A stretch of DNA of 44,648 bases from Rozella allomycis CSF55 (lineage: Eukaryota): NCBI GenBank assembly GCA_000442015.1, contig KE560848.1:219389-264036 (forward strand), read 5' to 3'. Shown here one piece after another: positions 1,568-43,007 of this stretch; positions within the stretch are counted from its first letter, which is position 1, and each line of letters opens with the position of its first letter. The translations under genes and the position numbers were made by a program. Below the pieces are notes generated by a model. The model saw only the letters and a list, made by a program, of their open reading frames with translations. It was not told where the DNA came from and searched no databases.

Positions 1568-1707
1568 TGAAAATTTAGGAATAGAAAACTAGAATTTACA
1601 AAACAAATATTAAGAAATGAATAAATGTAATGAATGCTTTAAGGTTAATTCATTTTTTAGAAATATGTATTATTTGGTTAAAAGCCAAACTTAGCCACAT
1701 TTTCTTC

Positions 1708-3452: not shown

Positions 3453-3717
3453 TCCATCAATTCCCTCCTATAGCATTTTTTGTCAATAAATAAAAAGTTT
3501 CCTTTATTCTTTCTTATTTAGAAAATACCTGGGTGGCTTAGACACGTGATTTTTGCACTTGTGGGAAATACCTACTTTATTCGTGGAATTACATGAATCT
3601 TGTTTCATAAATTTAAATATTGCCCTGTTTATTTAATTGTTCTCTGTCAAATAAATGCCAAATGTTAATAATCTAAGTTTCAAGAGGCTTGTCTATATAT
3701 TACCAGGGTCTACTTAG

Positions 3718-5518
3718 ATGTCTAAACGAAGTGCGTCCACTATTTCATCAAGCCCACCTGTTGCAGCCCGAAGAGGTCGTCCCCCCAAAAATAGTACCAT
3801 GTTTGGTGTAATTCATAATTAGAAGTTGCCGCTTTGTCAGATGATGTCTCACCATCAATAAGTGATTGTTCAGATTACAGCTCTTCTGTAAACTAACGTA
3901 TATTTATTTATTCTAGTCCTCTGCTGGAAAAGAAAGCGTTACAGATGATATTATATCGCAGAAATTTCCAAAATTTACCACTGATAGAAAGAGACATCTT
4001 GTTTATGAATCAGAATCCAGTGAAGATTCTTTTGAAGAAACTGCTAATCCTGTTAATACTGTTATTACAGATTATGAAGAAGAGGAAGAGGAAGAGTTAT
4101 TCACCGATGCTTGCTTTGTCGAAATGCACGAGAAAATTACTACAGAGAAAATCATGAATGACATTTCATTTGGAGAAGATCCAATGGATGCAATAAGTAT
4201 GCTATGGTCTGATGCCGAGTCGTTTGAATCTTCGTTTAGCGACGATGAAGATATGAATCAGGCCATTTTAAACGACATTAAAGAAAATCAAACCACTAAT
4301 TCAAAACATGACAGTAGGAGAATCGCTCATTCTATGAATAACAACGTCATTGCTTCGCCTCCCCAGCCACAATTTAATAAATCGATGAGTCAGACTCAAC
4401 TGGAGCTCCCAATGGCCAAGAGATTCAAATCAGAGTTGGATAAATCCGACATGTTAATGTACGCCCACACGCCCATTGGAAAGGAGAATGTCGGCGATTC
4501 CAACAATAGTCAATCAACCTCTCTATCTGGTAATCCTTTGCAAATTCAAAATGGGTCTAACGCTGGCACGAAGAATTTCCTCGCTGGGCTTACAAAAGTA
4601 ATTTATTTAATCAATAGCTAATAGGAAACAATAATGGCCACACTTTCACAGCTTCCTTCTGTTAACATTGCGTCGTTGACAAACGCAGCGAAAAAGGAAA
4701 TGGAGATTAAAAAGCCCCAACTGTTCAAACAGCTCCCCAATCGACCATTAACCAGGATGGAATCTATTGAACTTATTTATCAAATGATCATGGCAGATAA
4801 AGAGTCTCAAAAACAGCTTCTTCAAAATCCTTACAATAAAAAGAAAAAGCCAATGTCTCCCAATAAAAATAAAAAGCCGGTGACTCCCAAGGTGTCAACC
4901 GCGCCACCACCACCACCAGCTGACAACAATCCTTTACCATCTGAGTTGAGCACGCTGTGCAAAGGCACTAAATTAGTTTCATCAACCACAAATGATTTAG
5001 ATTTGCGTCTGTCTATTGAGAATGCATTGCTTCAAAGCTCTGATGATGAAGATGACGTGGACGACATGGAAGAGCCAGTTTTGAATATTGAAGAGTTTGA
5101 ATATTTGAATCATTCACTAGTCGATCAATCTCAATGTGACGTTGAAAATTCAGAATCTTTCGAGCGGTGGGGGAAAATTCCAATTGGTGCGTTTAGGAGG
5201 AGCCGAAGAAGAAGTGCGCCTTATTTACTTTTATCAAGGGCATTGAAATCATCAGTCCTGCATCAAACTGTTGGAACCACAAAATTATCAGAATCAAAAC
5301 CTAAGCCATCTGTTATCCATAGTATGCTCACACCCACCGTATCCCAAGGTTTCGATTTTCCAGAATCTCCTACTTTAACTCCGATATCAAATCCTAGCTC
5401 GAATATTCAGAAATCAAGTTTGTTTTCTCCAGATTTCTTCAAAGACGATAATTTTCTCTCGCATGAACTTCCAGATACATTTCCATCACTTTCATTGACT
5501 CCACCAATGTTTCAATAA
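3718..5518 (+). CDS. Hypothetical low-complexity nuclear protein with an N-terminal AT-hook
   Basis: ATG at 3718 gives MSKRS...RRGRPPK (AT-hook). Three short introns (about 3734-3762, 3888-3916, 4598-4624) join it in frame to ORFs 4124-4621 and 4634-5518. It has acidic tracts and a WGKIPIGAFRRSR motif. Confidence 0.7.
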
Positions 5519-5558
5519 AGGCTTTTGAATTATATCATTTATAAAATACAAAATCTTT

Positions 5559-6330
5559 TTATTTAAATTTAATTTCTCGCTTCACTATATTGAACAATTG
5601 ATCTTGAACTATTGGCGGTAAATGGAAATTGGATATTTTAATCTCCGTGGGTTCGCATTCAGCTACGTTTTTATTTTTGCGCTGTTTGTAGTGGAAATTC
5701 TTATCGTTCTCAAACCCAAATCGATTCAACCTGAATTTTGTATTTTTATTTCTCATATTTAGAGGTATGGATTTCCCAACAATACCAAAATTATTCATTG
5801 ATTTCCCTGTTAACTAACATTAAGCAAGTTTACCTGGCGAAGACAATGACAACTGGGAAATTTGAGGACTCGTGTATACGTATTGCTCCTTTCGTCTTAT
5901 ATTACCAATGGATCTTTGAACATGGTCTATTGCAGCGATTTGAAGTGTCTGATATGAGCTAACTACTTTGTAATTTTTCACATCAATCAATGAATAATAT
6001 GAAGAAGTGTTGGTTGGAATTGTGTAATCAGTAAATGTATTGCAACTCGATACGCTAGAAGCTGTAGAACATTTCCTGTCAAATTCAGCGTCGAGACTTT
6101 CAGAGTAACATTCTATAGCCTCGACTATTTTAAATAACCCTTCTCCCCCATCTTGAGATAGAATAGGTAAAGGATTATGATAGATGTAATTTTTTTCTAT
6201 TCTTACTTATTAAATTAGGTATACCTTTGTTATCAGGACTGCCAATTGTAAAATTGTGAGTTTTGACTTGATTAGTGTCAATGTCAATAGCGTCACAGAG
6301 ACTATTCAATGACAAATTTTGAGAGTTCAT
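5559..6330 (-). CDS. Hypothetical protein (about 240 aa, 2 introns)
   Basis: ATG at 6330. The frame stays open after removing 28-nt and 27-nt GT-AG introns and ends in ORF 5559-5798. No recognisable domain. Confidence 0.55.
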
Positions 6331-6624
6331 CTTTTATTACAGGCAAATTGAGTTATTTTACCTTTTAAGGTTTCCTAGTCAAAAGAATGCACTAGACAAT
6401 TTTATTGTAAACAAATAGAATGCTTAAAAATATAATCGATAATAAAATTTATAGTAATAACTAATAGCTATTAATAATTAAATTATAAGTATACACAAAT
6501 ATTAACTTGAAACATTCTCTAATCATGCGTCAATTCTATAAATGCCTGTCAGAAAATTTGAAAACGTGTAATGATAATTTCAAAATTAAAAATATTGATT
6601 AATGATGCATCTAATCGTATTTAT

Positions 6625-7741
6625 TTATTTAACTTTAACTTTTTTTCTCGCTGAGGTTTCCTTAATATCTGGAATTTCTTCCCACACCTTGTCGTCTGCG
6701 TCAATCTCAGTTTCTTCATTTGCAACACAAATAGATGTCAACCGTTGCTTTAAATAGATCTTTTTAATTTAAATTGCTATGCTTACTTTCTTGAGCACTT
6801 TGCGGGTCGCTAAATCTATTACCCTGGCATGCCTGTCAATGGAGGCTGCATATATACTTTCATCTTTGATAAATAAACAGGATATACAACCAGGAAGTCC
6901 GGAAATAGTCCATATTCTCGCTCCAGTTGTCGGCGCAATACCGTAAATACTACCAATTGTATCTGAGACGGCAATAACGTTCTCAGTGCACGCGATTGCT
7001 TTGAATGCAACATCGCCTATCTTTACATCGACAATCGGTCGTTTTTGTTTTTGAATATCGTAAACGCGTATCTAATCAGTATAAATGACCACTGTTACTT
7101 CACTATTCAATGTTCCTGTAGCAATAGTATGTTTATTTATAAAACTCATACATGAGATATCAACGGCGACACGAATATTCAATTTATCATGCTTGACGTT
7201 TTTTGCTTTCCAAAAAGGATCAGCCAATTTAGTTTTTAAAATTTCTAATATAGAATAAACATTAACGCATCGCTCCTTTCCAGCAACTGCAAAATTTTCC
7301 TCAAATCCAGATAAACACCTCAAGTCTTTCCCGAGATCAAATTTCAGACACTCATCATTTACTATACTTTGCAAAAAGAGGTGACCTTCTGCAGTACAAC
7401 ATACAAAATTCCTATCAAAAAAGGCATGGAATATTACTCTTCGTAGACGTGAGCACCAATAAATGGAAAGCCGTTATTTTCAAACTCCCATTGTTTCTCT
7501 ATGTCTCCATTCATATCTATAAGCTCTACTAAGCCAGAATTTCTAAAAACTAAAATCTTTTCAATCATTTTTTATGACTGTACGTTATTTTTGTATGGTA
7601 ACAAATTTGAGATGGCTTGCTTTTTATCAACTTGTCCAAATTTATTTGTTTTTGTTTCTCCTCCTGAATTATTTATGCCTATACCTTAAAAAACTGTTAT
7701 TTACTTTTGACTAGACCGCTTTCATCGCCGACAAATATCAT
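6625..7741 (-). CDS. NSA1: WD40 ribosome biogenesis protein Nsa1/WDR74
   Basis: N-terminus MIFVGDESGLVK, FWKAKNVKHDKLNIRV and an acidic/basic C-terminal tail (DKVWEEI...RKKVK). Several 26-28 nt introns. Confidence 0.85.
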
Positions 7742-7977
7742 GGCCAACGAGTCAACGACAAGGGTGAGAAAAGTCGTATGGATTTTGAAACTAGTTTAAC
7801 TTATAGCGCTTTAGTCCATATTATTCAAGTTTACCCATGAACTATTGAATGGCAAGAACACCTATTGATAGAGGGGCTACTAGTGATAGACTTGTGTTAG
7901 TCGTTAATTATAATAGTGAATAGTAGTAGCCTTTATTTTTTAATTGTGATTCCCCATTCTTCTGTATTTAAAATGAT

Positions 7978-8660
7978 TTACTTCGTGAATTTATCAATCG
8001 CTCTTTCTTGTTCAAAACAAATTCCATAAAAGTTTTCACAAAATTCATTCTTTTTCCCTTAATACTCAAATCTTCATCCTTTTTTTGAACTATTTGTCGT
8101 TAACACGTACCTTACCACTAGATGGAATAACATTTTCGTTCGCCCCAAGAGAGACAAAGAACAAAAAGGGAACAAGCCAAACAAATAAACTAAAAAATGT
8201 AGCTACCTGAATTATTTTCTTTTAATTAATTATAATACCTTTGAATACGCGAAATAATAGCTCGTGAAATAGAAAAACCAAACAAAATGATCAATCACAG
8301 CTAATAAAGCTGAGATTATTAATTTTGGAGAAGTAACATCAATGTTCGGAAAATCATCCAGTAAATGTAAATAATACACATGACAAAATATGGAAAACAA
8401 AGTTCGAAAAAATGAAATGGAATCACTCACCCAAACTATTATATGAGAAACAATAACTGCCTTTCATGATATATTATTATTAACTGTACATTAATCAAGA
8501 TTTTGAGACATTTTTTCGTGTACACTGTGTGCTCTTCAATGAATTCCGTTATATACAAAAGACCGCAAGCTATTGACAAAACTACAAAAAGCTTACCGAT
8601 ACAAAGAATAGCAATTGCACCCATTAATAGAGCACCTATATAAACGTAAAACTGCAGCAT
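7978..8660 (-). CDS. SVP26: Svp26/TEX261 ER-Golgi cargo adaptor
   Basis: ACGLLYITEFIEEHTVYTKK, YLHLLDDFPNI and DHFVWFFYF; multi-TM, with short introns. Confidence 0.85.
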
Positions 8661-8845
8661 AGAATTTACACAATTTCACAAAAGGACTTTGGCTTCCCTT
8701 ATCCAAACGTTTTTAATAGAGATATATAAATTCCGTTGAATCTATTTCAAACTAAGCGTCAAAAAGGGGAAATGTAATTTTATTTGAATAAATTGTAAAG
8801 TGTAAAAGACGAAGCGTAACCTGAATTATATTTTTATTCAATGAA

Positions 8846-10110
8846 TTATATCAGCCCGATATCCTTCACGTTACGGAAAATAATAATACCGACTATATTG
8901 TTCAGGACTTTGGTCAATTGGGACTTGTCTGTAGCTTTAGTAAAATGAGTGTGAATGATTCTTTCGGTATTTTTGTTGCATTTTAAGAATTTTTTTCTCA
9001 TAAACTTTTTGGCTGCTTCCAATTCGCTTATACCTTGAACTGAATTATAGTCTTCGAATACGGATTTCAGAGATAGCGTGGGAAGGAGCATTTCAAAGAT
9101 ATCTGTCTTGTTCAAAAATAAGATAAAATGTCTGTCTCTCAAAAATTGATTATTCACCATGGATTCGAAAAGATCAAGTGCGTCATGGATTCGCCTCTGT
9201 GATGAAATTGAAATTAATATTACAATAGTAGGATCTTCTTCCATGAATTGGGCATATGAGCTTAACGAGGCCACAAAAATCACTGCATCAACATTGCTTT
9301 TCTAAAGAAAAACGTTCTTCTACCTGAACAAAGAAAGCCACTTATTCCTTGATGTTTTAGCCCCTGAAACATCTATGACATTCATTATGATATCATTGTT
9401 CATTTTAAACTTATGTTCAGAGATATCTTGAGTTGCATATCTAGAGTACAGGATATCCGATTCTTCAACATTATAGTCTTCAGACAGAACCCTTTCTATA
9501 TTTTCATCTTTAAGCCAGCTTTTTTAGTCATGATTAATTTATTTACTATCGGCAATTGTCAGGGAGAGAATTCATTTCGGCCTGATTTATGATGCCCGAA
9601 ATCACCGACCTTTCGATTGAGTTTATTAATAACGCGTTTGATCTATCTGCGTCTGAAAGTTCGATGGAATCTTTTTCGAAATCTAAAACTTCTGGGCAAT
9701 CATAGTTGTAATAGTACGACAAGGCGGCCTTGACGATGATGAGTGATTACAAGCATTACTTTGACGTCCTCATTGAAAAGGGCTTTGTATTCTTCCTTAT
9801 CAAGGAGAACTCTGGATAGTTGTCGATATATTTTCTTAATGTTATGCATAACGATGATCTTGCTTTGAGTCTTGTCCGTTTCACTGAAACCTTTGGTGGA
9901 GCTGTAAGCAATTTTCATTTGCTTTAAAACAGTGGTTTTACCGCTATCAGAAGCGCCTAGTTATAAATATTGGCTTAATTTACCAAGAAGAATGATGTTC
10001 TGGGTTTTATCAAATTCAAATTTCTCTTCAGCTAATTGTGCATCAATTTTAAGGCTGTTTTGTTTGGATAATTCTTGTTCTGATGCACTATCAGGTGCAC
10101 AGAAGAACAT
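8846..10110 (-). CDS. Heterotrimeric G-protein alpha subunit, atypical
   Basis: Spliced motifs LLGASDSGKTTVLKQMKI (P-loop), DILYSRYATQDI (switch I), DVSGAKTSRNKW (switch II), ILFLNKTD (G4), HFTKATD (G5) and C-terminal VKDIGLI. Confidence 0.9.
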
Positions 10111-10169
10111 TTAATGTGTTTAAAATTGATTGTTTTGGTTTACAATTGTATAGTATTTAAGCAAATTTA

Positions 10170-11680
10170 TTAATTTTGTTGTTTATTTGGTGGATTGCTC
10201 AAATCCAAAGGTTTTCCCGTTACTCTTTCATAGACGTCTTTGATGTCATTGCAGACAGTTTCAAAGTGAGATGTTGCGTCAAAAGTACGGGTGACGAATA
10301 CGTTATCATGTTTTCCGTCATCCATGGGTTCTTTGAGATCGCTTATTGTTACAAACTTGTCACAAATATGACCTAGCAAAGCATAAGCAGGCTCAATTTC
10401 TTTTTCGGGTAAAGAAGTTTCACAGATGGTGCTAACTATGGCAATGTAATAACCATTAGCGCAAACCTTGAAAAATCAACTAAACTTTTATACTTTGTGC
10501 ATGGAGGAGACACAAGCAATATAAATATCAGTTTTGCGACTCAATTGGCGTTGAGGAATAATAATCTGGCATGAATCCGCATCCCCGGTATTTGGAATTG
10601 GTTGTTTTAAAAGACAAATGGAACGAATAACTTTGCCAATGACTTTAGATTTATCAGGGAAATAAGAAGGATCTCCAATGACCATGCCACATTTAGCAAC
10701 CTTCTTAGAACAGAAATAAAAGATTACTTCTTGGCCAGATTTGACTCCAACAACAATTCCATTTTCCATAACTAGGCCATCGAATGGTTTATCCAACATG
10801 TAGGTACCCCCATATATGGCACTCAATCTATTTTTAGCTCAAATGATCTTTTACCTTGCAAACCCTTGTGGTAATTCTGAAAGGCCATACATTGGGTAAA
10901 TATAAGGACTTTTTCCATACTTTGCCAATGAAGAAACATACAACGTGATTCTATCAAATGTCTCAATGGCTGCCTTATTCAAGTATTCTTCATCTGGATG
11001 AAGTGCCATTGCGTGGCCAATGAAATCTTGCGTTCCAGATTCCAAGCCAAACTTTTGAAAGACCTTTTATTCTAAAGAGAATTTTCTACTTGAAGCATTG
11101 TGGTTTTCTCTAAATCAATTCCTTGATGTGTATTTGGATCCTCGTGCTTGTAATTTTGAATAAACTCAAAGAAGGACTTTGCTCGGCGTTTCTCAAAGAA
11201 TCCCATCAATGGAGACGTTACTGCCTCCATTTGTGTTGCAGGCACTTTGGAAATTTTGCCATCTCGATACACAAACGATCCTGCAATTTGTTGGAATTCC
11301 AAATATCTTGTCACATCAGTATACAATAGAATTTTAACCAATTCACCATTGGCCATCTTTTTAATTTTTAAGATCTACCTTTACCATAAACTTTGGAACC
11401 AAATCAATGTTGTAATCCCTATCCTTTCCATAATCCGCTGGCGGTGATTGCCCATCCTTGAATTTTTTAAACATCTTTTTTTCTAAACTAAAATGTATTA
11501 CTTGTGTCAAATTCAGTGAAGCACACTCGCCTCCATAATAGTCATTTCTATCCATGTGCAATACCTTTTTCCCTTCCATGGACAATAAAGACGACAAAAC
11601 GCATTCAGAAAGACCAGTTCCTAGAACTACAACATCGTATTTCTCATCCTACAATCACCAGCTATGACATAACATACCAT
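10170..11680 (-). CDS. GDI1: Rab GDP-dissociation inhibitor
   Basis: The first coding exon is the ATG alone (intron 11649-11677), followed by [53 protein letters not shown] and DATSHFET. Confidence 0.97.
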
Positions 11681-11949
11681 TGAAATCTCCAGGGTTAGTG
11701 TATTTCAAAATTCAACAGCAAATAAAGTCGAAAAACTATTTATTACTCCAAAATAAAAAACATAACCTATGGCAAATTTGATTTTAAGTATCACTGTATC
11801 ATTGTAAAGTATGCGATCTGCACTTTCAAGATAGATGATATTAATAATCAACTTTAAATAAATCATACACTAATTTATTTTTACATCTCGATTATTTGTC
11901 TAATTTTTAATTACTGACTTTCGGAATTTCTGTTGTCAGTTGTCACTAA

Positions 11950-13245
11950 ATGGGTGAGGTAACAAAGGTTAACACTGACGCATTACTACAATATGAAGTG
12001 CCTTTCATCAAGGTATAGAATGAAGAAATAATTCTATTTAGATACCTTATGAGCAGTATAAGAAGCAATATAGGCAATTGCAAAAGGTTACCGAAAGGGA
12101 TTTACAAACTTTCTCCAACCAACTAAAAGATATTCCAGGATTAATAAGATCAGGGAAAAGAAAACCTGAAGATATCAAAAAATCTGTGACTCAATACATG
12201 AAATCTATGAAGAAGAAAGTCGATGATATTTATGACGAAAACCAAAACACTACAAGTAGCCTGACCAAGAGAATAAAGCTTATGAATTGTTTTGAGAATA
12301 TCAAACAAATGGAAGATCCAGATTTTAATGTTTGGACAAGCACTTTATTGGAAAGACTAATCGTTGACTATTTGCTCAGAAATGATTTGAATCAAACAGC
12401 AAATCACATTTATAATTCATTGCCTATAAAAGTAAAATCATGAAAAAGTTCACAAAGGATTTTCTAGACCTTGATTTCTATGCAAGCTCAAAAAGAATTG
12501 CTTTATCATTGAAAAACAAGAATTGTTCAGGTAAAAATAGTTTACAGCTGGAATAAGATGCGCTTGTTTGGTGCTCTGAGAATAAAACTTACCTCAAGAA
12601 GACCAAAAGTGATATCGAGTTTCAGTTGAGATTTCAAGAGTATGTTGAGCTTTGCTCTCAAAGAAAAATTTCTGATGCTATTTCTTATTGCAAAAAATAT
12701 TTGATTCCTTGGAGAGAAACTCATCTCGAGGCTATCCAAAGGGCCGCGGCACTGATTGCTTTTAGTCCTTCTACGTCGTGTCCTGTCTATAAGGTAACGA
12801 ATGCTGGTCATAAAAATAGAAACTCTATGAAACCTCTAGATGGGACACACTTGTTTCCAATTTTTATAAAGAATGTTTTAAATTGGTAGGATTGCCGGAA
12901 AGTTCATTCTTAATTACTGCTCTAGAAGCTGGACTTTCGAGTCTGAAAACATCCATTTGCTCTCAGCCAAATAACGTAAATATTAATTGCCCTGTTTGCA
13001 ATCATGAAATTTCAAAGTTTGCATCCAAGCTTCCATGTGCTCATCACATAAATTCTCGAATAGTATGCAGAATTAGTGGGCTTGTGATGGATGAACATAA
13101 TCCACCACTTATGCTACCAAACGGCAAGGTTTATTCGACAAAAGCGTTGACTGAAATGGCTAATGTCTCTGAAGGCAAAATCACTTGCCCAAGGACTGGA
13201 TCAGTTTATCAATTTAGTGACTTGCGAAAGTGCTACGTACTTTGA
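11950..13245 (+). CDS. FYV10: GID/CTLH E3 ligase subunit Fyv10/Gid9/MAEA
   Basis: YEVPFIK/IPYE N-terminus, LisH (ERLIVDYLLR), CTLH/CRA region and degenerate RING (CPVC...LPCAHH...MDEHNPPLMLPNGKVYS...CPRTG). Four 26-29 nt introns. Confidence 0.92.
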
Positions 13246-13343
13246 AAAAAATAAAAGTAGTTTTACCGAATTTTATTTTCATCATTCTTTGTTGACTCTT
13301 TGCCATTGCAACATCACACCTTGACAACGATTTTAGGTACGTG

Positions 13344-16300
13344 ATGTCTGACCCAAACATTATCAAAGACGATGCTGAATATAAATCCCAACCACAATTG
13401 GTAAAAAATATTAATGGACATGATAGGAAAGTAATATGGAGATCGACAAGGGTGAAAGTGGATTGAATGGTAGCGGCATAGATAAGAGCCAGGAAGAGAA
13501 ATTTGAGCAAATCGAGGCAGAGTATCAAAAGACAATGGTGGAATTAGCAGAGGATCCAATGCTCCAAAAATTTAAAGTTGAGTATGAAAAGATCCACAGA
13601 ATATTATTGAAATCTCGTGAAAATGAAAAAAAGCTGATTCAGAAATGCAAAGATATTGGGCAGGAATTGTCGTTATCTACTAGCAAAGTTCAGCAGGCGA
13701 TGAAAATGTCACAAGCTGATAGAACAACAATTGCTAATTTGAACAAGGAGATTGAAAAGGCGTGGAAGATGGTGGAAACCTCTAATGAAAAGGAAGCAAA
13801 ATCGCGAGAAGGAATACAACAGTTGAAGATGGAGATTGCTAATTTGCAAAAAATGATCGAAGGAGGAACAGGGTTGAGCATCGACCAAGAGAGGGCGGTG
13901 AATGAATTGATTCATGTAAGGGGAATAAACTTTGTAGATTTAGATTAAAGAGGAGTTGACTAAAGAGAGAGATTCACAGTTGAACACGATTGTTAGTTTG
14001 AGGAATGAGATTTCCGAGTTGACACAACGAATTAGGACTATGGATGCTGAAAAGACGGAAGCTGAGCATGAAATATCGACGTTGAAAGATTTGATAGCAA
14101 CGAAAAAGAGTGAAGGGGATAGAGAGCAAAGGAACAAAGACAAGTTAGAAAAGGAGTTGAAAGAGGCAAGAACGGTTATTGAAGCTAAGAATGCTGAAGT
14201 GAGAAGCAAGCAAGACATGGTGAATAAAACCAAAGAAGAAATCAATAGAATGGAAACGCAAATGCGAGAGCAAAAAATGTTGTTGGAAAAGGCTCAAAAA
14301 GACCAAGAGACATTGACGACGAGGTAAGAGGAATGAATTTTTTTAACAAGGTAAAACATTACAATGCAAAATAAAGGTCAATCAAGTTGCAGCAAGATTT
14401 TGAAGAGCAAATCTTGGCGACTTCAACAATGTTGGCAGAGAATCAGCAAAAGGCGAATGATTTAAGAATAAAAGAAGAAGAAATTTTAAGAATAAAAGAA
14501 GAAATTAAAAGCGTTAATAAAATTAAAGTAAAAAGCGAAAGAAAGCAAAACAGGAAAATTTGTCACGAAAAATCAAGCAATTGGAGGAGCAAAAATATGA
14601 AGCGGAGCAACAAAGAGATAATATTAAAGTAATGTGTGAAACTGGGTAAAAAAGAATATAAATCATACGTTTGAACGAGAGATTGAAGGATTGAAGAAGG
14701 CGGCTGAGCAAGATAAAAAAGCTTTGGAGGATTTAGTTAGGGAGAGAGATATTTTGAATAGGAGTGTGGTGAAAGCGAACAATTCCACTACAAAGCAATC
14801 AAATCTTGTTAAAATTAATGAGCAAGCAATAAGAAATTTAGAGAATGAGATTTCTAGTTATAAAGAAGAAGCTTCAAAGCAAAGAAAGGTAAAAGGGGGT
14901 TGAGATTTAGAATAGGTAAATTTTTATTTTCTATTTTGAAAGATTATTTTTCAATTAGAAAAGGAGAGAGATAAATACATTTCAGAAGCAACGGAAATAC
15001 AAGCGCTATTTCATCAGTCTTTGGAAGATTTGAAGATGAAGGAATTGGAAATTTTTGATTTAAAAAAGAAGATTTCCGAATCTGAAACTAAATTGAAGCA
15101 GCAGCAAGTATAAATGGTTTTAATGTTGAATAGAATTTGTATGAAGCTGTTCGTAGTGATAGAAACCTTTATAGCAAAAACTTGATAGAGAGCCAAGATG
15201 AAATAATGGAAATGAAGCGGAAATTAAAAATAATGAATCATCAAATAGAGCAACTGAAACAAGAAATTGGATCAAAAGAAGTAAATCTGAATTCTGAAAT
15301 TTCAGAAATAGGCGGCCTTAGTTAAAGAGCATTTTGAGCATCAAAAAGTACAAAAAGAAAAAGAGAGTTTAAAAAATGAATTAAATAAATTAAAACAACA
15401 AAACGACTTGGCGCAACAATATATTCAGAATCAGTCAACAGAAGAACAAAAATTGAGACATATAATTAGTGAAGCTGACAAGGAAAAGGTGCAGCAAAAG
15501 AAGGAATTCGACTCTATCGTTCAAGAGAGAGTAAAGGGGATTTAAGGATTCAAAAAGGATATTTTAGGAACACAATTAATAAGAAGGAATGATGAATTGG
15601 CCCTCTTGTATGAAAAAATAAAAATTCAGCAATCAACGTTGAACAAGGGTGAAATTCAATACAGAGAAAGACTTGAAGATTTGAGGGTTTTAAAATTAGA
15701 AATAAAGAGATTAAGAAGAGAAAAAAATCTTCTCCAATCTGAAACCGTCAACGTTGATGGATTAAGACAAGAAATTTACAGAATCCAAAGAGAATTGCTA
15801 AGGGAAAGAACCAAAGTGAAAGTGTTGGAAGAAGAATTGGAAAACCCAATGAACATTCATCGTTGGAGAAAATTAGAAGGGAGCGATCCAGCGGCGTTTG
15901 AAATGATTCAGAAAATTCAAACTTTGCAAAAGAGATTAATTTCTAAAACTGAAGATGTTGTGGAAAAAGAATTAATCATTCAATCAAAAGAAAAATTATA
16001 CGTCGAGTTGAAGAATATTCTAGCCAGACAGCCTGGCCCTGAATTGGCTGAGCAAGTCAACGTTTATCAGCAACAACTGAAAAATAAAACTAGACAATTA
16101 AAAGTAAATAAATTTCTTTTTTTCTTTCTATTAAAGGCTATGGCTTCGGAACTAAACATGTACCAGGCTCAAGTCAATGAATATCGCTTTGAAATAGAAA
16201 GAATCAACAAAGACATGATTCATCTCAAAAAGAAATATTTTGATCAGAAAAAGAAAGAAATCAAAAGGTAAATTTTCATTATTTAAAGAAATCAAAAGGT

Positions 16301-16440
16301 AAATTTTCATTATTTTCTTTATCTGAAATCAGCCAAACTCTATCATTCCATCAATAGACCAAAATGGTCCTAAATTTGTTGGCGCGGGATTTAACATGAA
16401 TACACTTAAAGCGTCAATAATAGAAGCTGAAGCGACTTGA
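13344..16440 (+). CDS. CFAP58: Cilia- and flagella-associated protein 58 (CCDC147), long coiled coil
   Basis: LYEAVRSDRNLYSKNLIESQDEI, RDILGTQLIRRNDELALLYEKIKIQ, ELENPMNIHRWRKLEGSDP and C-terminal PKFVGAGF. It has many introns; the 3' splice structure near 16268-16332 is ambiguous. Confidence 0.9.
16254..16315 (+). repeat. Exact 31-bp tandem duplication spanning a CFAP58 5' splice site
   Basis: aaagaaatcaaaaggtaaattttcattattt occurs at 16254-16284 and again at 16285-16315. Confidence 0.95.
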
Positions 16441-16559
16441 GTAAAGGATTCAACTGGTCAAATATAGAGCATTTGTAAAAATAAATTGCATTTACCCATT
16501 TTAAATGTTTTTTATTTAAGATTTTAAATAGTTTGTTATTTAATTTACATTGTCACAGA

Positions 16560-17072
16560 TTAAGTGCTGGATTTTATAATGTAATAAAGGGGCCTTAGCT
16601 CATCCAACATTGGAAGAAAATTCTTTACAACAAAATTCATCTCTTTACCTCAAATAATACAACCAACTCTTTACTCTTCTTACATCTAATTGCAAGATAG
16701 TGCACAACCTTGAATCTAGTAATACCTTCAACAATTAAAACTTCATCAATGTCAACACTATCAATAAAGCACTTCTTTATTGGTCCAATCCCATAATACG
16801 TCGACAACTGTATTCCTACCTGGGGTATCAACAACACAGACTCTTTATCACAATCTATTACATTTCTTACCTTGTCTAACGGTTGTCTTGAAATAAAAAA
16901 CAAATAAAACCACTATAAAAAATGCAGCATATATATAATTCAACGTAAAGCAATACAAGAGAACCTGTTAATTTGTTAACTTTTGTCTTACCCCCAAAAT
17001 TGCTGCATAAAAAATGTCTGATATACTAACAATGTTTTTATCATTTTTGATCGATATTTGTTTGGAATTCAT
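16560..17072 (-). CDS. GPI15: GPI-GlcNAc transferase subunit PIG-H/Gpi15
   Basis: Hydrophobic N-terminal segments, then ESVLLIPQVGIQLSTYY...IDEVLIVEGI.RFKVVHYLAI...LVVLFENFLP. Three short introns. Confidence 0.85.
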
Positions 17073-17224
17073 TCCTAATTGCTTTATCCAAACACTACTA
17101 TCTTTCATCAATCAATATTTCCAAAATTATATCAAATGTAATGATGGATTTAATACTGGAAAAGAAAATTAATATTGCCAATTTTGAATAATTGATTAAT
17201 GTCGTTTCCGCTTACAGTACAAGA

Positions 17225-18871
17225 ATGAAATTTCAAATACAAGTTGGAGTTAATGTCGAGAGATGTTTTCCCGTAAATCAAAATCTTTATCTCTTCACCG
17301 ATGATAAACACTTATATTCATTTAAAAGACAACGACATAACGAATTTGATACAGTAAAAATCGCAGAATATTCACCTGCTAAAGTTGCCTTTATTCCTGC
17401 ACTAAACATTGTATTCTACATTAAACAAGGAAGGCTAGTTGGTATTTACTTAAACAACTTCAAGGAAGTACACCCTTTGCCAAAAATATCCAATTTAGTT
17501 GATCTTCAAGAACACAATGGCATCTTGTATCTAACTACATCCTTTACATTTATAAAACTCCAGTTCTGGAACGACTCGATCAAGGTTACTCATACTTTTA
17601 TGATTCCACAACATGAAGGAAAGGTTAAAATTCAATACTGCGACGATTGCATCCTCTACATTTCAAAAGGCAATACGCTGTATCAGTTGACAGACAATGG
17701 ATTTAAAACTATGCGCGAATTCTCAAATGATATATACTCACCAATTTTCAAAAATGAAAGATTAGGCTTTCTTTTATGCAATGGCGATGAAGAGGAAACG
17801 GATCACTTTGTCCAAAATGTTGACAGCATCGTACAAGTTGATCCAGAAACTTTTAAAATATTCAATAAGGGTATTGAATATGATGGGTTGTGTCATATGA
17901 ACGATCTATTCCTTGGTTGGAGAGGACATTGCCTATTCCTTCATGAGGACATAAAATTAATTGATAGGAGACCGCTTTTTCAAAGATTAAAAGAAGATGT
18001 ATTTCAGGATATTAAATTCATGGTTACTCTAATTTCAGAATCACTTTTTGCAATCACGTTTAGTAACTTTGAGGATCATCTGAAAATTGAATTCATTGTT
18101 TCAGAGCAAATGGTAAGTCTTGGAAGGTATTTAAATTTAAATGAAAAAACAAAATTGTACTTTGAAAACTACTGTAATAATATGACTATGGAACTATCAA
18201 GTTTTGAGAAATTACGAAATTTACTCTTAAGCTTTAATGATTTTCAAGACAATTTAAGATATTTTCACGTTGTAGTTCCACGGAAAGGTAGTACTGCAAG
18301 ATTCAGGGGTACTGAAAATGTTATTTGCTGCTTTGCTACAACACGAGTAAATTCCTTACAGAGGGAAGATAGCATTTCTAAACCATTAATTCGACTATTC
18401 AAGACGCTAGGTAAGAATTCTGGGAAGATATTGATTGACATTTTGTCTAATTTTGTTCTGATATACGCAAAGAGGCCCACTATTTTGTTTGAAATTCTAT
18501 CTCAACTCTCTAATGATATATTGCTTCCAAGCGTATTGAAATCTACATTAAGGAATATTATGAATCTCTATATGAAACAACTCAATCAACTAGGTCATTT
18601 TTCTAGAATGGCGGATGTTTCTGTATTATTGAATGGAATATTGAAAGAAGAACTCACGATGGCCCAAAAACTGTTTCCGAAATCAATACATGAAAAATTT
18701 AACCTCGCAATAACTGAAGATCCAAATAGTCGGTTCCATAATCCATCAAAAGCATTCATATGTATCTTTTGTGAAAAACGCATAAAATCTGAGATTGTTT
18801 GGTGTAGATTTTGCGGCTCTGTGTTGCATTCTCATCATTATATTGCACACAATAATTCACATACTAAATAA
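17225..18871 (+). CDS. Intronless hypothetical protein: beta-rich N-terminus, helical middle, C-terminal Cys/His zinc finger
   Basis: 548-codon ORF from ATG at 17225, ending in CIFC-x10-CRFC-x4-H-x2-H. The family assignment is uncertain. Confidence 0.75.
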   Translation: MKFQIQVGVNVERCFPVNQNLYLFTDDKHLYSFKRQRHNEFDTVKIAEYSPAKVAFIPALNIVFYIKQGRLVGIYLNNFKEVHPLPKISNLVDLQEHNGILYLTTSFTFIKLQFWNDSIKVTHTFMIPQHEGKVKIQYCDDCILYISKGNTLYQLTDNGFKTMREFSNDIYSPIFKNERLGFLLCNGDEEETDHFVQNVDSIVQVDPETFKIFNKGIEYDGLCHMNDLFLGWRGHCLFLHEDIKLIDRRPLFQRLKEDVFQDIKFMVTLISESLFAITFSNFEDHLKIEFIVSEQMVSLGRYLNLNEKTKLYFENYCNNMTMELSSFEKLRNLLLSFNDFQDNLRYFHVVVPRKGSTARFRGTENVICCFATTRVNSLQREDSISKPLIRLFKTLGKNSGKILIDILSNFVLIYAKRPTILFEILSQLSNDILLPSVLKSTLRNIMNLYMKQLNQLGHFSRMADVSVLLNGILKEELTMAQKLFPKSIHEKFNLAITEDPNSRFHNPSKAFICIFCEKRIKSEIVWCRFCGSVLHSHHYIAHNNSHTK

Positions 18872-18946
18872 ATAATTATGAAGAAATAAAGTTTTTTTCA
18901 ATTCATATTTATCGATTCTCGACTTTAAATAAGCTTCGTGAATTCT

Positions 18947-20001
18947 ATGAGTCCACAAAGTGACACTCCATTGTCCATTCATCTTTTGTCGGGTGGAATA
19001 GCAGGATTAGTTGAATCATGTTGTTGCCATCCTTTGGACACTATAAAAGTTAGAATGCAGTTACGAAACAGCGATGCTAGAACCGAGGTAATCATCCCCA
19101 TCCCGTCATTATACAGAAAATTGGGCTCATTGGAACTACAAAGAGGATCTTTAAAAATGAAGGTAACATTACGTCTCTTCTCACAAAAGGGGCATTCGCT
19201 TTCTATAAAGGATTTGGCCCTGTTGTGTGCGCTATAGTTCCTAAGATGTCCATAAGGTTTCTCTCTTTTGAATATTTCAAGCGTCAAATTACGAATGGAG
19301 ACCTTAATCAAGTGACCCCAAGTGTGAATTTTACGGGTAATAGGTCATTATTCTTTTGTTTCACTAGCTGGCTTATTAGCAGGGATTACAGAGTCGTATT
19401 TTGTAGTTACACCTTTTGATGTGGTGAAAATACGGCTTCAAGCCCAAAGGCACTCATTGGCAGATCCATTGGATATTCCAAAGTATCGCAATGCGGCGCA
19501 TTGCATTTTTACTATCTTAAAAGAAGAAGGTCCAATTGCACTGTATAAAGGCGCCAGTCTGACAGCGACAAGACAAGGTACAAGTATCCATATTTTGCAA
19601 CTTTAGCGACAAATCAAGCAGTTAATTTTAGCTGCTATCATGAATTCAAAAAGCGATGGACAGAGTATGGAAACGTAAAGGAATTATCCTCTATTCAGCA
19701 TTTGCTTTTAGGAGGACTTTCTGGTGCCATGGGCCCGATTGCTAATGCCCCAATCGATACAATAAAAACAAGAGTTCAAAAGCAGGGAAACGTTCTTGGT
19801 CAATCTGGTTTTACTCAAATTAAAAATGCGTTCAAAATTATTCTTGCATCAGAAGGAATTTCTGGCCTTTATAAAGGACTCGCTCCAAGATTGTTGAGAG
19901 TAGCCCCTGGTCAGGCAATTACTTTTATGGTCTACGAAAAGACGAAAAGTTTGCTTGTGTTTAATAGACCCGTGACTGATCCTGTGACCCTTGATGAATA
20001 A
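18947..20001 (+). CDS. SFC1: Mitochondrial succinate/fumarate carrier
   Basis: Three PxDxxKxR carrier motifs, CHPLDTIKVRMQL, RLQAQRHSLADPLDIPKYRNAAH and PRLLRVAPGQA. Four 27-31 nt introns. Confidence 0.93.
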
Positions 20002-20360
20002 ATAAACGCCTTTTAAGAAATATTTTCTCGAACAGATATCTATATTGGCACTTTGACTGCCTATAATTTTCTGAAACATCCATACCCACTTCTTTAGACC
20101 TGACTGGAATGATGCCTTTGTTATTCTGGACACACGGAAGTCATGTGAGAAAACTGACGATATCTGATCGGGACATATTTGATCAAATGAAAATCAAGAA
20201 TCAAGATGCAGCGCTGCAGTCGGTGAAAGGTGGGAGGGTAAGATATTTGTATGACATTTTCGTCCTAAATGACCGTTTTTGTTATAATTCGAGTAAATGA
20301 ACTAATATAGATGAATGTCTCAATTCAATTTCAAGAAATTAAAATGTTTATTATGAAATA

Positions 20361-21221
20361 CTACTCTTGAATCTTAATTTTCTTGCGATTCTTTGTACCA
20401 AAACAGTTTCTGAGTTGAGTAAGAGAATCTTCAACACTAAAATCTTCGCTTGATGAGATAGAATTGGCAGAAGTAATAAACCAATTGAACCAGCGAAGAA
20501 TTTCAGATAAACTAGCGCTTGAGTTGTACGTTCCGTCGTCTCCAACATTAAGGACTACGATAGGTGAGGCATAAACAATCGCATCCACATCAATAGCAAA
20601 GAAGCGAAAGAGAAGTCCATTGGTTAGAGCAGCAAACACAGGAGTATTCTTTCCAGCGGCCAACCGTTTCTTGAGCAAACATCCTGCTTCACAAAGGACT
20701 TGAGCAATTGAACTATCAGGCCATTCCTGCTTCGCTTGGACAACCAAAATAGACGAGTCCATAGTACCAACATATTGGAATTTAGAGTACCCCAACATAT
20801 AGTCCACATCGCCAGTGTAGCCGAATCCAGTTCCTTCCCAGTCATTCTTAACTTTACAGAATCCCCAAAGGCGATGTAGAGCGGCGTCAGTATTTTTTAA
20901 CAAGACTTCTGTAAGGATTGCGTCAATGACAAGTCGGCAGGCCTTTTCGTTGTCCAATACCCAGACCTGGTCAATCTTCTTCAAAGCTTCACTGAGCCAG
21001 AGACTAGGAGATACTGTTTTAAAATCATCTGGGATGTGAAGTGAAGGAGCTTTGACATTAATATAGTCAAGGTTCAGCGCTAGACCATCAGGTCGAACAC
21101 AGTGGTCATAAGTAGCTTTAGAGAAATTAATAGATGGTTTTTTCTTATTCTTGAATTGCTGGACTTGTTTCCATTCTTCTTCTGTGAGTTCGTTCAAGGT
21201 CTTGCTCAATAGTTCGTCCAT
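20361..21221 (-). CDS. Intronless PD-(D/E)XK restriction-endonuclease-fold protein (CRN-effector-type REase-like)
   Basis: NEKACRLVIDAIL helix, TGDVDY...ILVVQAK...IAQVLCEA...VFAALTNGLLFRF, and a basic C-terminal tail (KNRKKIK). Confidence 0.65.
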   Translation of the reverse strand: MDELLSKTLNELTEEEWKQVQQFKNKKKPSINFSKATYDHCVRPDGLALNLDYINVKAPSLHIPDDFKTVSPSLWLSEALKKIDQVWVLDNEKACRLVIDAILTEVLLKNTDAALHRLWGFCKVKNDWEGTGFGYTGDVDYMLGYSKFQYVGTMDSSILVVQAKQEWPDSSIAQVLCEAGCLLKKRLAAGKNTPVFAALTNGLLFRFFAIDVDAIVYASPIVVLNVGDDGTYNSSASLSEILRWFNWFITSANSISSSEDFSVEDSLTQLRNCFGTKNRKKIKIQE

Positions 21222-21282
21222 TTTGTTTTGAAAAATGAATGTGTAACCTAGCCACCCCCCCTTGACTTTCGGGTTTGGTGAT

Positions 21283-21421
21283 TGGGAAGGACCTGGAATC
21301 GGCTACACTGACATGCAACCAAAAGGCACGAGTCCATAGTATCAACAGATTTGATTTAGTAGGACCCCAACATACCATTACCGTCCACATCGCCAGTGTA
21401 GCCGAATCCAGGTCCTTCCCA
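21283..21421. repeat. 28-bp inverted repeat (27/28 match) with an 83-bp spacer
   Basis: 21283-21310 tgggaaggacctggaatcggctacactg versus the reverse complement of 21394-21421, tgggaaggacctggattcggctacactg. Confidence 0.9.
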
Positions 21422-21480
21422 GACATTTTTGACTTCACAAAATCCCCAAAAAGTTTATTTCGAGCGGCTGTATTTTTTGA
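21312..21480 (-). pseudogene. Degenerate partial paralog of the adjacent REase-fold gene
   Basis: Translates as GFCEVKNVWEGPGFGYTGDVDGNGMLGSY*IKSVDTMDSCLLVA, against GFCKVKNDWEGTGFGYTGDVDYMLGYSKFQYVGTMDSSILVV in the intact gene. It has a stop and a frameshift. Confidence 0.85.
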
Positions 21481-21557
21481 AATATGCTGTAAACGAACTT
21501 GAGGACTTGCGTCGTCACTGCCCAATCAACGACACCATTTTGTAATTTTTTTGCGAA

Positions 21558-21646
21558 CTAGCGGTGCTTCGCTCGCATTAAAAAACTGAATTGTGTTCGA
21601 CTTCGTTATGTTTCTCGCATAGATAAAACCGATACTATAATATAGA
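21558..21646 (-). mobile_element. 89-bp non-autonomous Helitron-like mini-element
   Basis: The minus strand reads A|TCTATATTATAG...TAATGCGAGCGAAGCACCGCTAG|T: 5'-TC, 3'-CTAG, a subterminal GCGAAGC hairpin and an A^T target with no TSD. It shares sequence with copies at 23863 and 24392. Confidence 0.65.
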
Positions 21647-21652
21647 TGGTAN

Positions 21653-22768
21653 GGAACAATTCTGTCATAATTTTCCGCTATGAATTTGTCTATATTACCT
21701 TTTAAAACAAAACTTTCAGATTTCGTAAAGATGGTGGATAGACCGTGATCAGAAAATTTGCTTATAGAGCGCAGATTATGAGAAAATGAAGGACAGTGTA
21801 TTATGTTTTTGATTATGCCTTGAAAATTGTTGGCTTGATAGGACATTGATCCGGTTCCTTCGGAAGTCATATTAGTACCGTTGGCTACATGAATTGTTTC
21901 CAACTGTGGAGCGTAAAAATCAAGATGATCTTTATTGTTCACCATGTGGTTAGAACATCCATAATCGGCCACCCATTTGACGGCAAGCATGGCAGCTGGT
22001 TTTGCGTTGGTCTTCGAAACGTTTGCACAAGTTTTCGTATTTTCATAATGACGATAGTGGAGACCGGCAGCCTTGCATTTGTTGCATGTTGGAGCTTTCT
22101 CAGGATGGAATTTCCAGCATGAACTGGATTCTCGGTGATGTTCACATTGGCGTTTGGCGAGGAAGCTAGAGTGATCAACTTTCTTTTCGCGAACGTTTTG
22201 GAGTTCGTGTTCACGAAGGACCCGGTTACGAACATTTTCTAAGGTCAGAGCTTCCGCTTCTTCATTTTCAATATCTTTTTCAATAATGGAGCGTACATTG
22301 TTGAAGTGCGACGGCAGGGACGAAATACCAATGAGAACAGTCAGGTCGGTAATTTTGATACTATCAGAGCCATTGGATGCTGTAAGATTTCTTTCAAGCG
22401 TTGCCACACGATTAAAACCGTCTTCGAGAGTACCGATAGCAAAGTCGTGCGCAATAAGTTCTTGAATAAATTTGAGTTCCTAGGAACGCTGTTCACTCTT
22501 GTATTGGCTTTTAAGTCGTTCCCATGCATCAGAAGCGTCAACGGTGTCCAGAACTAAGTGAATCAAGGTTTTGTCAAGGTTGTTAACGATGGCATGATGT
22601 GCGTGAGTATTTTCGGTTTTGGGACTATCCTGCTTGTTGTCCCACAGTTGATGTGCCTTTAAGAGTAGTTTCATTTGGAAGGCCCATTATTCAAAGTTTT
22701 CTTGGCCTTTCAGGGGAAAGCCGATGGTTAGCGTAGTGACGTGAGTGCGTGGTGCTGGTAGATCAGCA
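21653..22768 (-). mobile_element. Degenerate Ty1/copia LTR-retrotransposon gag-protease fragment
   Basis: LKGQENFE*WAFQMKLLLKAHQLW (gag N-terminus), ASDAWERLKSQY, knuckle-like H..SSCW..HPE, protease WVADYGCSNHM and IIHCPSFSHNLRSISK. It has in-frame stops and is bounded by Ns at 21652 and 22769. Confidence 0.85.
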
Positions 22769-24933: not shown

Positions 24934-26915
24934 ATGAAGAGTGCTATCTTTTCGGGTGCTTTGGCCTTACTATCGCTTGGTAGTATCCACGCCAAGTCGT
25001 CGAGTGCTATCGGTATTGATTTGGGAACTACATATTCATGTGTTGCTGTGATGAAGGGAGACAATGTTGAGATTATAGTGAACGAGCAAGGAAACCGTAT
25101 TACACCGTCATATGTTGCGTTTACTGATAACGAGAGATTGATCGGAGAGGCGGCCAAGAACCAGTACGCTAGCAACCCAAAGAATACTGTTTATGATGCC
25201 AAGAGATTGATTGGAAAGGATTTTAGTGATTCAACTGTTAAGAAGGATATGAAATACTTTACTTTTGATGTTGTGAATAGAAACAATAAGCCAGTTATTA
25301 AGGTTAATGTTAAGGGAGAGGATAAGGTAGATTAATTGAAAGTTTTTTAGTTTAGGAATTTAGACCAGAAGAAATTAGTGCTATGGTTTTGACCAAGATG
25401 AAGGAAATTGCAGAGAACTATTTGGGTGAGACTATTAAGGATGCTGTTGTTACCGTGCCAGCATACTTTAACGATGCTCAAAGACAAGCAACAAAGGACG
25501 CTGGGACTATTGCAGGATTGAATGTTATTCGTGTTTTGAATGAGCCAACTGCAGCAGCTATCGCCTATGGATTGGATCGTGTTGATAAGGAGAAGACTAT
25601 TTTAGTTTATGACTTGGGTGGTGGTACATTTGATGTTTCATTGCTTTCTATTGACAATGGAATTTTTGAAGTTATTGCAACATCAGGAGACACTCACTTG
25701 GGAGGAGAAGATTTTGACAACAAAATTGTTGACTTTTTGAAGAAGAAGGTCAAGAGTAAATTGAATGTAGATGTTTCCAATAACATGAAAGCAATGTCAA
25801 AGTTGAGAAGAGAAGCTGAAAAAGCCAAGAGAGTTTTGTCATCATCTACTGAAGTTAGAATTGAAATTGATGCTTTGGTTGATGGAAAAGACTTTAGAGA
25901 AACATTGACAAGAGCCAAGTTTGAAGATTTGAACATGTCATTGTTTAAGAAGACTTTGGGACCAGTTGAGAGAGTATTGAAAGATGGAAAGATTGATAGA
26001 TCTAAAGTTGACGATATTGTCCTTGTTGGTGGATCTACTAGAATTCCAAAGATTGCTGAATTGTTAGAAGATTTCTTCAAAGGAAAGAAAGTTAACAAGA
26101 ACATCAACCCTGATGAAGCCATTGCTTATGGTGCTGCTGTTCAAGCTGCTTTGCTCACTGGACATGAAAGCACTAAGGATATTTTGATTATGGATACTTG
26201 CCCATTGACTCTTGGAATTGAAACTACTGGAGGTGTTATGACAAAGTTGATTCCAAGAAACACTCAAATTCCAGCAAAGAAATCTCAAATCTTTTCTACT
26301 GCTGCTGACAATCAACAAGTTGTTTCAATTCAAGTCTATGAAGGTGAACGTCCTTTGACCAAAGACAACCATCTTTTAGGCCGTTTTGATCTCTCTGGAA
26401 TCCCACCAGCCCCACGTGGTGTTCCACAAATTGAAGTCACTTTTGAAATTGATGCTAACGGTCTCTTGAAAGTGTCAGCTGTTGAAAAAGGTACTGGAAA
26501 GTCTGAATCTATCACCATCACCAACGATAATGGACGTTTGTCTCAAGAAGAAATTGAAAGAATGGTTGCTGAAGCTGAGAAATTCAAACAAGAAGATGAC
26601 TTGGCCAAAGAAAAGATTGAAGCTAGAAATACCTTTGAATCCTACGTTCATTCTATCAAGGCTCAATTGAAAGAAGACAAATTAATGTCTAAACTTTCTG
26701 ATGAAGATAAACAATCTCTCAACAAGGCTGTTGCTGAAGCTGACAAATGGTTAACTGCCAATGGTGATGCTTCCAAGGATGACTTTGAAGAGAAGAAATC
26801 TGAATTAGAATCTGTCGTATCTCCAATCATGACTAAAGTTCTCTCTGGTGGCGCCACTTCTGAATCTTCCAATGACGACGACGATGAAGATGATGATGAT
26901 CATGACGAACTTTAA
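24934..26915 (+). CDS. KAR2: ER Hsp70 chaperone BiP
   Basis: Signal peptide, [11 protein letters not shown], Hsp70 signatures and C-terminal HDEL. One 29-nt intron at 25327-25355. Confidence 0.99.
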
Positions 26916-40971: not shown

Positions 40972-41184
40972 CTAATCAAATAAAGTGTTCTTTAATTATC
41001 ACGTTATATTGTCATAAATTAATAGTCGATAAACAATGTTAGATCTATTCCATTCTCATTCTAGACCATTAAAATATTTCTGCTATTTCTGCATGCCAAC
41101 AATCCATTTCTAGTTTTGAAATCTTAGCTATCTGATAACCGATCGAAGATCTTGATGTAGGAAATTTCAGGGCGATGACCCTAG

Positions 41185-42774: not shown

Positions 42775-43007
42775 ATCATTAACAATCTCATTAAATTTTG
42801 ACTATCAAATTTCATTAATTTGTTGCGATTAAGTAAACAGTCTATTCAAGCATAGGACCATCAAAATATTTCCGCATACTTCATAGAATCCTTTTCTTCT
42901 TCTAGTTTTAAATATGAAATTGTTAGTTAGCGGATGACCGATCATCTGGCTTCATACCATGCCGAAGATCTTGATCAGAAATTTCAGACCGAGACCCTGG
43001 TTGTTAG

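Follow-up and report, generated by a model that had tools for sequence, protein, structure and literature searches.

In the flagellar gene CFAP58 (CCDC147) of Rozella allomycis CSF55, we observe a 54-nucleotide (nt) interruption at 14889-14942 (forward strand) that is made of two 27-nt units end to end, with zero exonic bases between them. With moderate confidence, we read it as two complete, independent minimal U2-type GT-AG introns that are removed stepwise. The gene lies in a 44,648-nt stretch of contig KE560848.1 (GenBank assembly GCA_000442015.1, positions 219,389 to 264,036 of the forward strand), here called the window, to which all coordinates refer. The elements concerned are as follows.

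14655-14888, forward strand: upstream exon, C-terminal end ...YKEEASKQRK, phase 0
14889-14942, forward strand: CFAP58 double intron, 54 nt, 27+27
14889-14915, forward strand: intron unit 2A, 27 nt, GTAAAA...AATAG (gtaaaag...aatag)
14916-14942, forward strand: intron unit 2B, 27 nt, GTAAAT...GAAAG
14914-14917, forward strand: AG/GT junction, where the 3' splice site of 2A touches the 5' splice site of 2B; zero-length exon and putative ratchet point
14943-15107, forward strand: downstream exon, starting IIFQLEKERDKYISEATE...

The reading frames flanking the interruption run ...YKEEASKQRK and then IIFQLEKERDKYISE..., and homologues, which are uninterrupted at this junction, read KQRK-IIYQLEKERD. 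A tblastn comparison with a homologue opens a gap of 18 residues (18 codons) exactly at 14889-14942. In a spliced model built from the coordinates and aligned by MAFFT with 12 CFAP58 homologues, the KQRK/II junction is gap-free. Exactly 54 nt must therefore go, and nothing else. Both results bear out the need to remove 54 nt that had been claimed in a first-pass annotation of this DNA, which was also exact in the letters and coordinates of the two halves, in the midpoint AG/GT and in the flanks (...SKQRK before, IIFQLEKERD... after). The tetramer AGGT occurs once inside the 54 nt, at the central junction only.

In frame, unit 2A reads gta aaa ggg ggt TGA ... gaa TAG (TGA at 14901-14903, TAG at 14913-14915), and unit 2B reads gta aat ttt tat ttt cta ttt TGA aag (TGA at 14937-14939). 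Consistently, in the stop-to-stop list of open reading frames (ORFs), one ORF ends at 14903 and the next starts at 14940. With an in-frame stop in both units, retaining either one truncates the protein. Half-spliced RNA of either kind would thus carry a premature stop and yield no protein isoform, and all 54 nt are non-coding.

Both units have the features of ordinary U2-type GT-AG introns, namely a GTA 5' end, an AG 3' end and a length in the local range. On paper, removal of 2A joins AAG/GTAAAT and regenerates the donor of 2B, while removal of 2B joins AATAG/ATT and leaves the acceptor of 2A intact. In the proposed mechanism, the spliceosome would match every 5' site to the closest usable branch point and 3' site, at a distance of some 27 nt, and two successive reactions, in either order, would each leave the splice sites of the other unit intact. 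Two spliceosomes would hardly fit on 54 nt at once, so that the steps would be sequential. We infer stepwise removal because both units are complete introns of the preferred length, each with the nearest site as its partner.

The same arrangement is found a second time in CFAP58, 512 nt upstream, so that the absence of any exonic base between halves, as first annotated, now describes two complete adjoining introns twice in one gene.

14324-14376, forward strand: CFAP58 double intron (sister case), 53 nt, 27+26, central AAG/GTAAAA, phase 2
14324-14350, forward strand: sister unit 1A, 27 nt, GTAAGA...ACAAG; if kept, AG/G TAA gives an immediate stop
14351-14376, forward strand: sister unit 1B, 26 nt, GTAAAA...TAAAG

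To score the four units we used a splice-site position weight matrix (PWM) covering the first 8 and last 12 positions, built from 33 ordinary introns of the window, together with 226 GT..AG decoys drawn from intronless genes. PWM totals are 15.0 bits for 1A, 13.4 for 1B, 16.1 for 2A and 11.0 for 2B, and the ordinary introns reach 5.8-13.3 bits (leave-one-out, n=33). None of the 226 decoys attains the total of 1A, 1B or 2A, and a single one (1/226) attains that of 2B. Units 2A and 2B are each intron-like, scoring at or above ordinary introns.

Introns were catalogued on both strands with a codon-usage Viterbi gene finder, and each long "intron" was resolved by hand; the sample of intron lengths is thus that of one 44.6-kb window. 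The 33 ordinary introns are 22-33 nt long and all read GTA...AG, which agrees with the annotated normal length of both halves. Clear interruptions longer than 34 nt are only those at 14324-14376 (53 nt) and 14889-14942 (54 nt), both in CFAP58, both with a central AG/GTAA and both about twice the modal intron length. Among the other long calls of the finder, 11998-12041, 9297-9341 and 7367-7437 are each a short intron plus in-frame coding sequence, further ones are mis-parsed short introns in a mitochondrial-carrier gene, and the rest are artefacts of the model, located at gene ends and in a degenerate retroelement. Ambiguous are 6748-6786, which is either a 39-nt intron or 27 nt plus 12 coding, and 34956-35017, a duplicated intron of 62 nt. 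The first-pass claim that the window has only two introns over 34 nt therefore stands for the clear cases and is ambiguous at these two sites.

AGGT occurs 0 times in the 649 positions of 26 short introns. A central AG/GT with halves of 20-34 nt arises in 3.5-3.7% of random introns of the same composition, and in shuffles of the units' own sequence it arises in 4.1% (53-mer) and 10.4% (54-mer) of cases; a central AGGTA is expected by chance in 1.4-3.8%. For both double introns jointly, the chance is 0.13-0.42% with AGGT and 0.02-0.07% with AGGTA, a post hoc estimate in keeping with the earlier view that a midpoint AG/GT in both introns is unlikely by chance. In the whole window, on both strands, we observe four tandem intron-like pairs, and an open frame is restored only by the two in CFAP58. 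The third is an alternative parse of a duplication (16268-16332), and the fourth, at 16623-16674 on the reverse strand, mimics two 26-nt introns within PIG-H coding sequence, under positions 1-67 of Pfam PF10181.

16563-17050, reverse strand: PIG-H (GPI-GlcNAc transferase subunit) gene, small, convergent with CFAP58; look-alike pair in the C-terminal coding part

The assignment to CFAP58 follows from full-length colinear similarity to named CFAP58 proteins. A search with the 266-amino-acid (aa) exon at 15306-16103 gave 2342 proteins with E<=0.001 among 6987 candidates, 120 of them listed. Identity to these listed proteins is 67-75%; most of the named ones are CFAP58 and some are "hypothetical protein," and a PF21771 match is precomputed. 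The 12 homologues of the MAFFT alignment come from the matches to this exon. In addition, the window CFAP58 is 61% identical over 874 aa to homologue P0003, about 880 codons are open and colinear with homologues once GT-AG units are removed, and the spliced model has 0 gaps at its 9 intron junctions against the 12 homologues. The gene and its remaining introns are laid out as follows.

13436-16440, forward strand: CFAP58 (CCDC147) gene, ATG at 13436, TGA at 16438-16440; 9 intron sites checked against homologues, and a microexon structure at the 3' end
13916-13943, forward strand: CFAP58 intron, 28 nt
14528-14553, forward strand: CFAP58 intron, 26 nt
14629-14654, forward strand: CFAP58 intron, 26 nt
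15108-15133, forward strand: CFAP58 intron, 26 nt
15281-15311, forward strand: CFAP58 intron, 31 nt
15531-15557, forward strand: CFAP58 intron, 27 nt
16104-16136, forward strand: CFAP58 intron, 33 nt, phase 0

An alternative upstream start at 13344, needing a 26-nt intron, is possible. At the 3' end, a perfect 31-nt tandem duplication (16254-16284 = 16285-16315) spans the last exon-intron boundary of the gene. For the conserved C-terminal motif GPKFVGAGFN to be read in frame, a 10-nt microexon (16289-16298) must be flanked by two introns, one of 21 nt (16268-16288) and one of 34 nt (16299-16332). A conserved frame that depends on a perfect, hence recent, duplication possibly reflects a local assembly error. 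The intron at 16104-16136, unlike the gene's other introns of 3n length, has no in-frame stop, and its retention would add 11 aa (VNKFLFFFLLK).

Two of the 26-nt introns resemble each other: together with 11-nt upstream exon flanks (14517-14553 and 14618-14654), they are identical at 26 of 37 positions, which ranks this pair first of the 666 intron pairs compared (the runner-up has 23, and the mode is 14). The sites of both introns (14528-14553 and 14629-14654) are intron-less in P0242, the closest relative found. The likeness may be a trace of intron copying, or it may come only from shared coding context (...ATTAAA/GTAA).

An R. allomycis protein with the CFAP58 exons was absent from the listed matches of 467-2000 aa (266-aa exon) and 138-2000 aa (exon A), a search outside which models of 146-465 aa with only the 266-aa exon would fall. 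The neighbouring BiP, unlike CFAP58, is present under its own name among R. allomycis proteins. The public R. allomycis CFAP58 gene model may thus be absent, broken or fragmented.

Relatives of the gene differ at the site of the double intron. P0242, a 309-aa ORF from a JGI record, is 72.6% identical to the window CFAP58 over 277 aa without gaps, and no nearer relative than P0242 (71%) was found in a search of representatives; a scan of genome contigs yielded no relative. It has no interruption where the window carries the 53-nt double intron and the two 26-nt introns. After KQRK, P0242 continues VKKEALIKCS... and then with foreign residues. When all codon choices are tested, its tail, read in the +2 frame at offset 9, can encode the next exon of the window at 20 of 23 positions, and other offsets reach at most 45%. 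This fit indicates that P0242 holds one intron at the same phase-0 site, of 9 codons plus AG, or 29 nt.

The other close relative, P0243 (a 249-aa ORF from an ENA record), is 77.4% identical over 243 aa and has KQRKLIFQLEKERD contiguous, that is, no intron at the site of 14889-14942. Its sequence closes with an intron-like tail where the window has the 27-nt intron 15531-15557, and its source is either DNA or partly spliced RNA. The number of units at the double-intron site is therefore two in the window, one in P0242 and zero in P0243. Among metagenome loci, the KQRK/II junction is contiguous in all 34 inspected of 53 (11 by adjacent high-scoring segment pairs [HSPs], 3 by secondary HSPs, 8 by DNA reading, and 12 more); any introns in these loci are offset from the junction, by 6 or 12 codons upstream or by 11 downstream. 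Of 152 representative proteins read, 47 were informative and 46 have the junction contiguous, the exception being P0242. Of eight comparable CFAP58 intron sites, five are missing from the two nearest relatives found. As far as these sequences tell, the intron site at 14889-14942 is specific to the Rozella lineage.

Two routes of intron gain are tandem duplication across an AGGT and insertion at proto-splice sites. At 14889-14942, the intron would be older than the split from P0242, and the second unit would have been gained in the R. allomycis lineage, either through insertion at the AG/GT boundary or through duplication of an intron long enough ago for the copies to have diverged; another possibility is that the P0242 lineage lost one unit. 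The first-pass annotation had asked whether orthologs point to a lost microexon or to a second intron at the same site, and the single 29-nt intron of P0242 fits the latter. It had also called the halves unrelated, and indeed the local alignment score of 2A with 2B is equalled in 401 of 2000 shuffles; across all comparisons of the halves with each other and with the 60-nt flanks, 277 to 1990 of 2000 shuffles reach the observed scores, none of which is significant. Recent duplication was considered as the origin and rejected, the halves and the 60-nt flanks being not detectably similar. Two recent tandem duplications in the window do take in whole or partial introns (16254-16315 and 34956-35022), which makes duplication a live local route to tandem introns; since the halves of 14889-14942 are not detectably similar, any duplication behind them would be old. 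Among all intron pairs in the window, 2B and the intron at 30303-30330 on the reverse strand align best globally (22/28). A maximum this high is reached in 7 of 150 shuffled sets, and the pair is second of 666 when compared ungapped, so that kinship of the two is a weak lead only.

An origin in which a microexon between the two introns was secondarily lost is highly improbable. The gene does have an apparent 10-nt microexon (16289-16298) between 21-nt and 34-nt introns, but no residues are missing or extra at KQRK/II with respect to the 12 homologues, the junction is contiguous in the inspected loci and in nearly all informative representatives (34/34 and 46/47), and the nearest relative, P0242, has one intron and not two.

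The duplication at 34956-35022 lies on the forward strand in a DNA polymerase beta/X-family-like gene, where a 28-nt intron and 6 exonic bases are duplicated (34956-34988 and 34990-35022). The repeat of 33 nt is 97% identical, with a period of 34 and an N at 34989, and sits inside a GIHGVGPTTA helix-hairpin-helix motif. If both copies were spliced, the protein would gain 2 aa; one outer splice of 62 nt would give back the original message.

The main competitor of stepwise removal is a single reaction that takes out 14889-14942 as one ordinary 54-nt intron, the central AG/GTAA being incidental or an unused cryptic site; we consider this less likely, but a serious alternative. Several points weigh against two successive reactions, and some of them speak directly for one. 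The 33 introns of one window set no upper length limit for this spliceosome, we found nothing that bars the R. allomycis spliceosome from spanning 54 nt, and the duplicated-intron structure at 34956-35017 may require a 62-nt splice. The chance estimate for the central AG/GT is post hoc, and that motif appears in 4.1-10.4% of shuffles of both sequences. The pair at 16623-16674 is coding in PIG-H, which means that the bare tandem-intron pattern does occur by chance. Moreover, the single 29-nt intron of P0242 is read from protein letters only, and neither half significantly resembles the other, the flanks or other introns, which leaves insertion, old duplication and loss all as candidate origins. 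Against a single reaction, both clear interruptions over 34 nt have a central AG/GTAA and about twice the modal length. Their internal sites score as high as or above ordinary ones, so that a splicing apparatus with a preference for about 27 nt ought to use them. In addition, no RNA structure joins the outer sites: folding is no better than in shuffles (z -1.43 for the 54-mer, -0.22 for the 53-mer and -0.45 for the 74-nt context), and Rfam over the gene returned one sub-threshold long noncoding RNA match only, elsewhere in CFAP58. An RNA run with the same species label, compared with 1501-21500 at 85% likeness, matched only partially, in 23 short pieces (about 35-50 nt, each with 3-7 mismatches) and with no joints, and so speaks for neither reading.

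Two further explanations deny that the 54 nt is an intron throughout. That 14916-14942 is kept as coding sequence, either in a +9-aa isoform or constitutively, can be given almost no weight. The length of this half is a multiple of 3, as first annotated, but it is not stop-free as had been supposed: the in-frame TGA at 14937-14939 is a stop in the standard code and in the ciliate code too, which rules out the 9-aa isoform proposed at first. Neither do 12 of 12 homologues nor 46 of 47 informative representatives have extra residues, and the exception, P0242, is explained by its intron. An artefact, meaning an assembly error that joined sequence here or a decaying pseudogene with a 54-nt insertion, is very unlikely. 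In its favour, the window has seven single-N positions and two perfect or near-perfect short tandem duplications, and the 3' end of CFAP58 is in the conserved frame only if the perfect 31-nt duplication is real, so that local assembly quality is questionable. However, about 880 codons are open and colinear after removal of the GT-AG units, the boundaries of both double introns are canonical, neither is a duplication, and four high-scoring splice sites would be unexpected in a pseudogene insertion.

The arrangement can be compared with several known systems. Long introns of Drosophila undergo RNA-supported recursive splicing with zero-nucleotide exons at ratchet points (bioRxiv 10.1101/006163; PMC5126111). 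As described in the cited portions of these papers, the likeness lies in a 3' site set against a 5' site (AG/GT), in the regenerated 5' site and in the lack of any remaining exonic base. The differences are that the interruption totals 54 nt, versus very long introns, that its units are already minimal, that either order works on paper, and that the case is known here from DNA sequence alone. Thus, a juxtaposed AG/GT that regenerates a 5' site is present, whereas the subdivision of a very long intron is not.

Stwintrons and complex intervening sequences of fungi (PMC7138796; PMC9024468, PMC6616335, PMC8469720) are, in the sections cited, likewise of fungal lineage, composed of two U2 units and removed consecutively, as is inferred here. 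In stwintrons as those sections define them, the external intron has its donor, branch or acceptor element split by an internal one, which forces the order of removal. In contrast, 2A and 2B abut and are not nested, and their own GTAA donors and AG acceptors are intact, so that the defining feature of stwintrons is lacking.

Lineages with ultra-short introns include ciliates, Microsporidia, Dicyema and myxobolid myxozoans (in the parts cited of PMC13644364, PMC6736024, PMC6543705 and PMC6349667); for Dicyema, a median intron of 27 bp with 36.7% GC is given there (PMC13644364, PMC6736024, PMC6543705). The window shares with these lineages a narrow length distribution centred near 27 nt and the reduced signals GTA...AG. 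Unlike here, abutting introns and a second length mode at about twice the first are not mentioned in those parts. Rozella is not named among such lineages in the introduction of PMC13644364, and two putative introns of about 30 nt are given for R. allomycis S23 in the cited part of PMC6349667. Our search found no literature on abutting tiny introns or on Rozella intron length; the genome paper of James et al. 2013, a possible source of intron statistics, lay outside that search.

The source of the DNA is consistent with its contents. The BiP ORF at 25356-26915, the one gene compared, matches "heat shock protein SSA1 [Rozella allomycis CSF55]" at 100% identity and 100% coverage, and this BiP ends in HDEL. 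The window also encodes a plant/fungal-type peroxidase (cytochrome-c-peroxidase) domain and has a GC content of about 35%. A dicyemid source, to which this GC content, the 27-nt introns and the ciliary gene would also point, is rejected on the peroxidase domain, the HDEL ending and the BiP identity. R. allomycis is a flagellated parasite at the base of fungi, sister to Microsporidia. About 850 CFAP58 codons with introns set by homology contain one in-frame stop, a TAG at 13941 that falls within the 28-nt version of intron 1. With this single intronic TAG and standard-code ORFs that reach 1006 aa, the code is the standard one. The ciliate code (table 6), which the introns of about 26 nt had brought to mind, is out on the same grounds, there being no in-frame TAA or TAG with correct introns.

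Elsewhere in the window, a Ty1/copia-like retroelement (Pfam Pol_BBD), degenerate and with broken frames, occupies 20361-22674 on the reverse strand, and two of the seven single-N positions of the window (21652 and 22769) lie in or beside it. At 39379-44648 on the forward strand are three tandem intron-less AIG1/GIMAP-like GTPase paralogues of about 530 aa each, the last of which runs past the window end.

If the two-step reading is true, CFAP58 would offer a natural case of recursive splicing reduced to its minimum, with two 27-nt units around a zero-length exon, in an organism with introns at the lower size limit, and intron length would be bounded above as well as below in such systems. A broader proposal, which we regard as doubtful, is that a ruler-like R. 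allomycis spliceosome takes only introns of about 20-34 nt, so that longer ones persist as concatemers under obligatory recursive splicing via zero-length exons; these concatemers would arise by insertion, for example by reverse splicing, into an AG/GT boundary. Were this so, double introns would mark recent gains of introns in a lineage that is usually regarded as one of intron loss. The site also bears on intron gain through its two, one or zero units in three related sequences. Finally, such double introns may defeat gene prediction.

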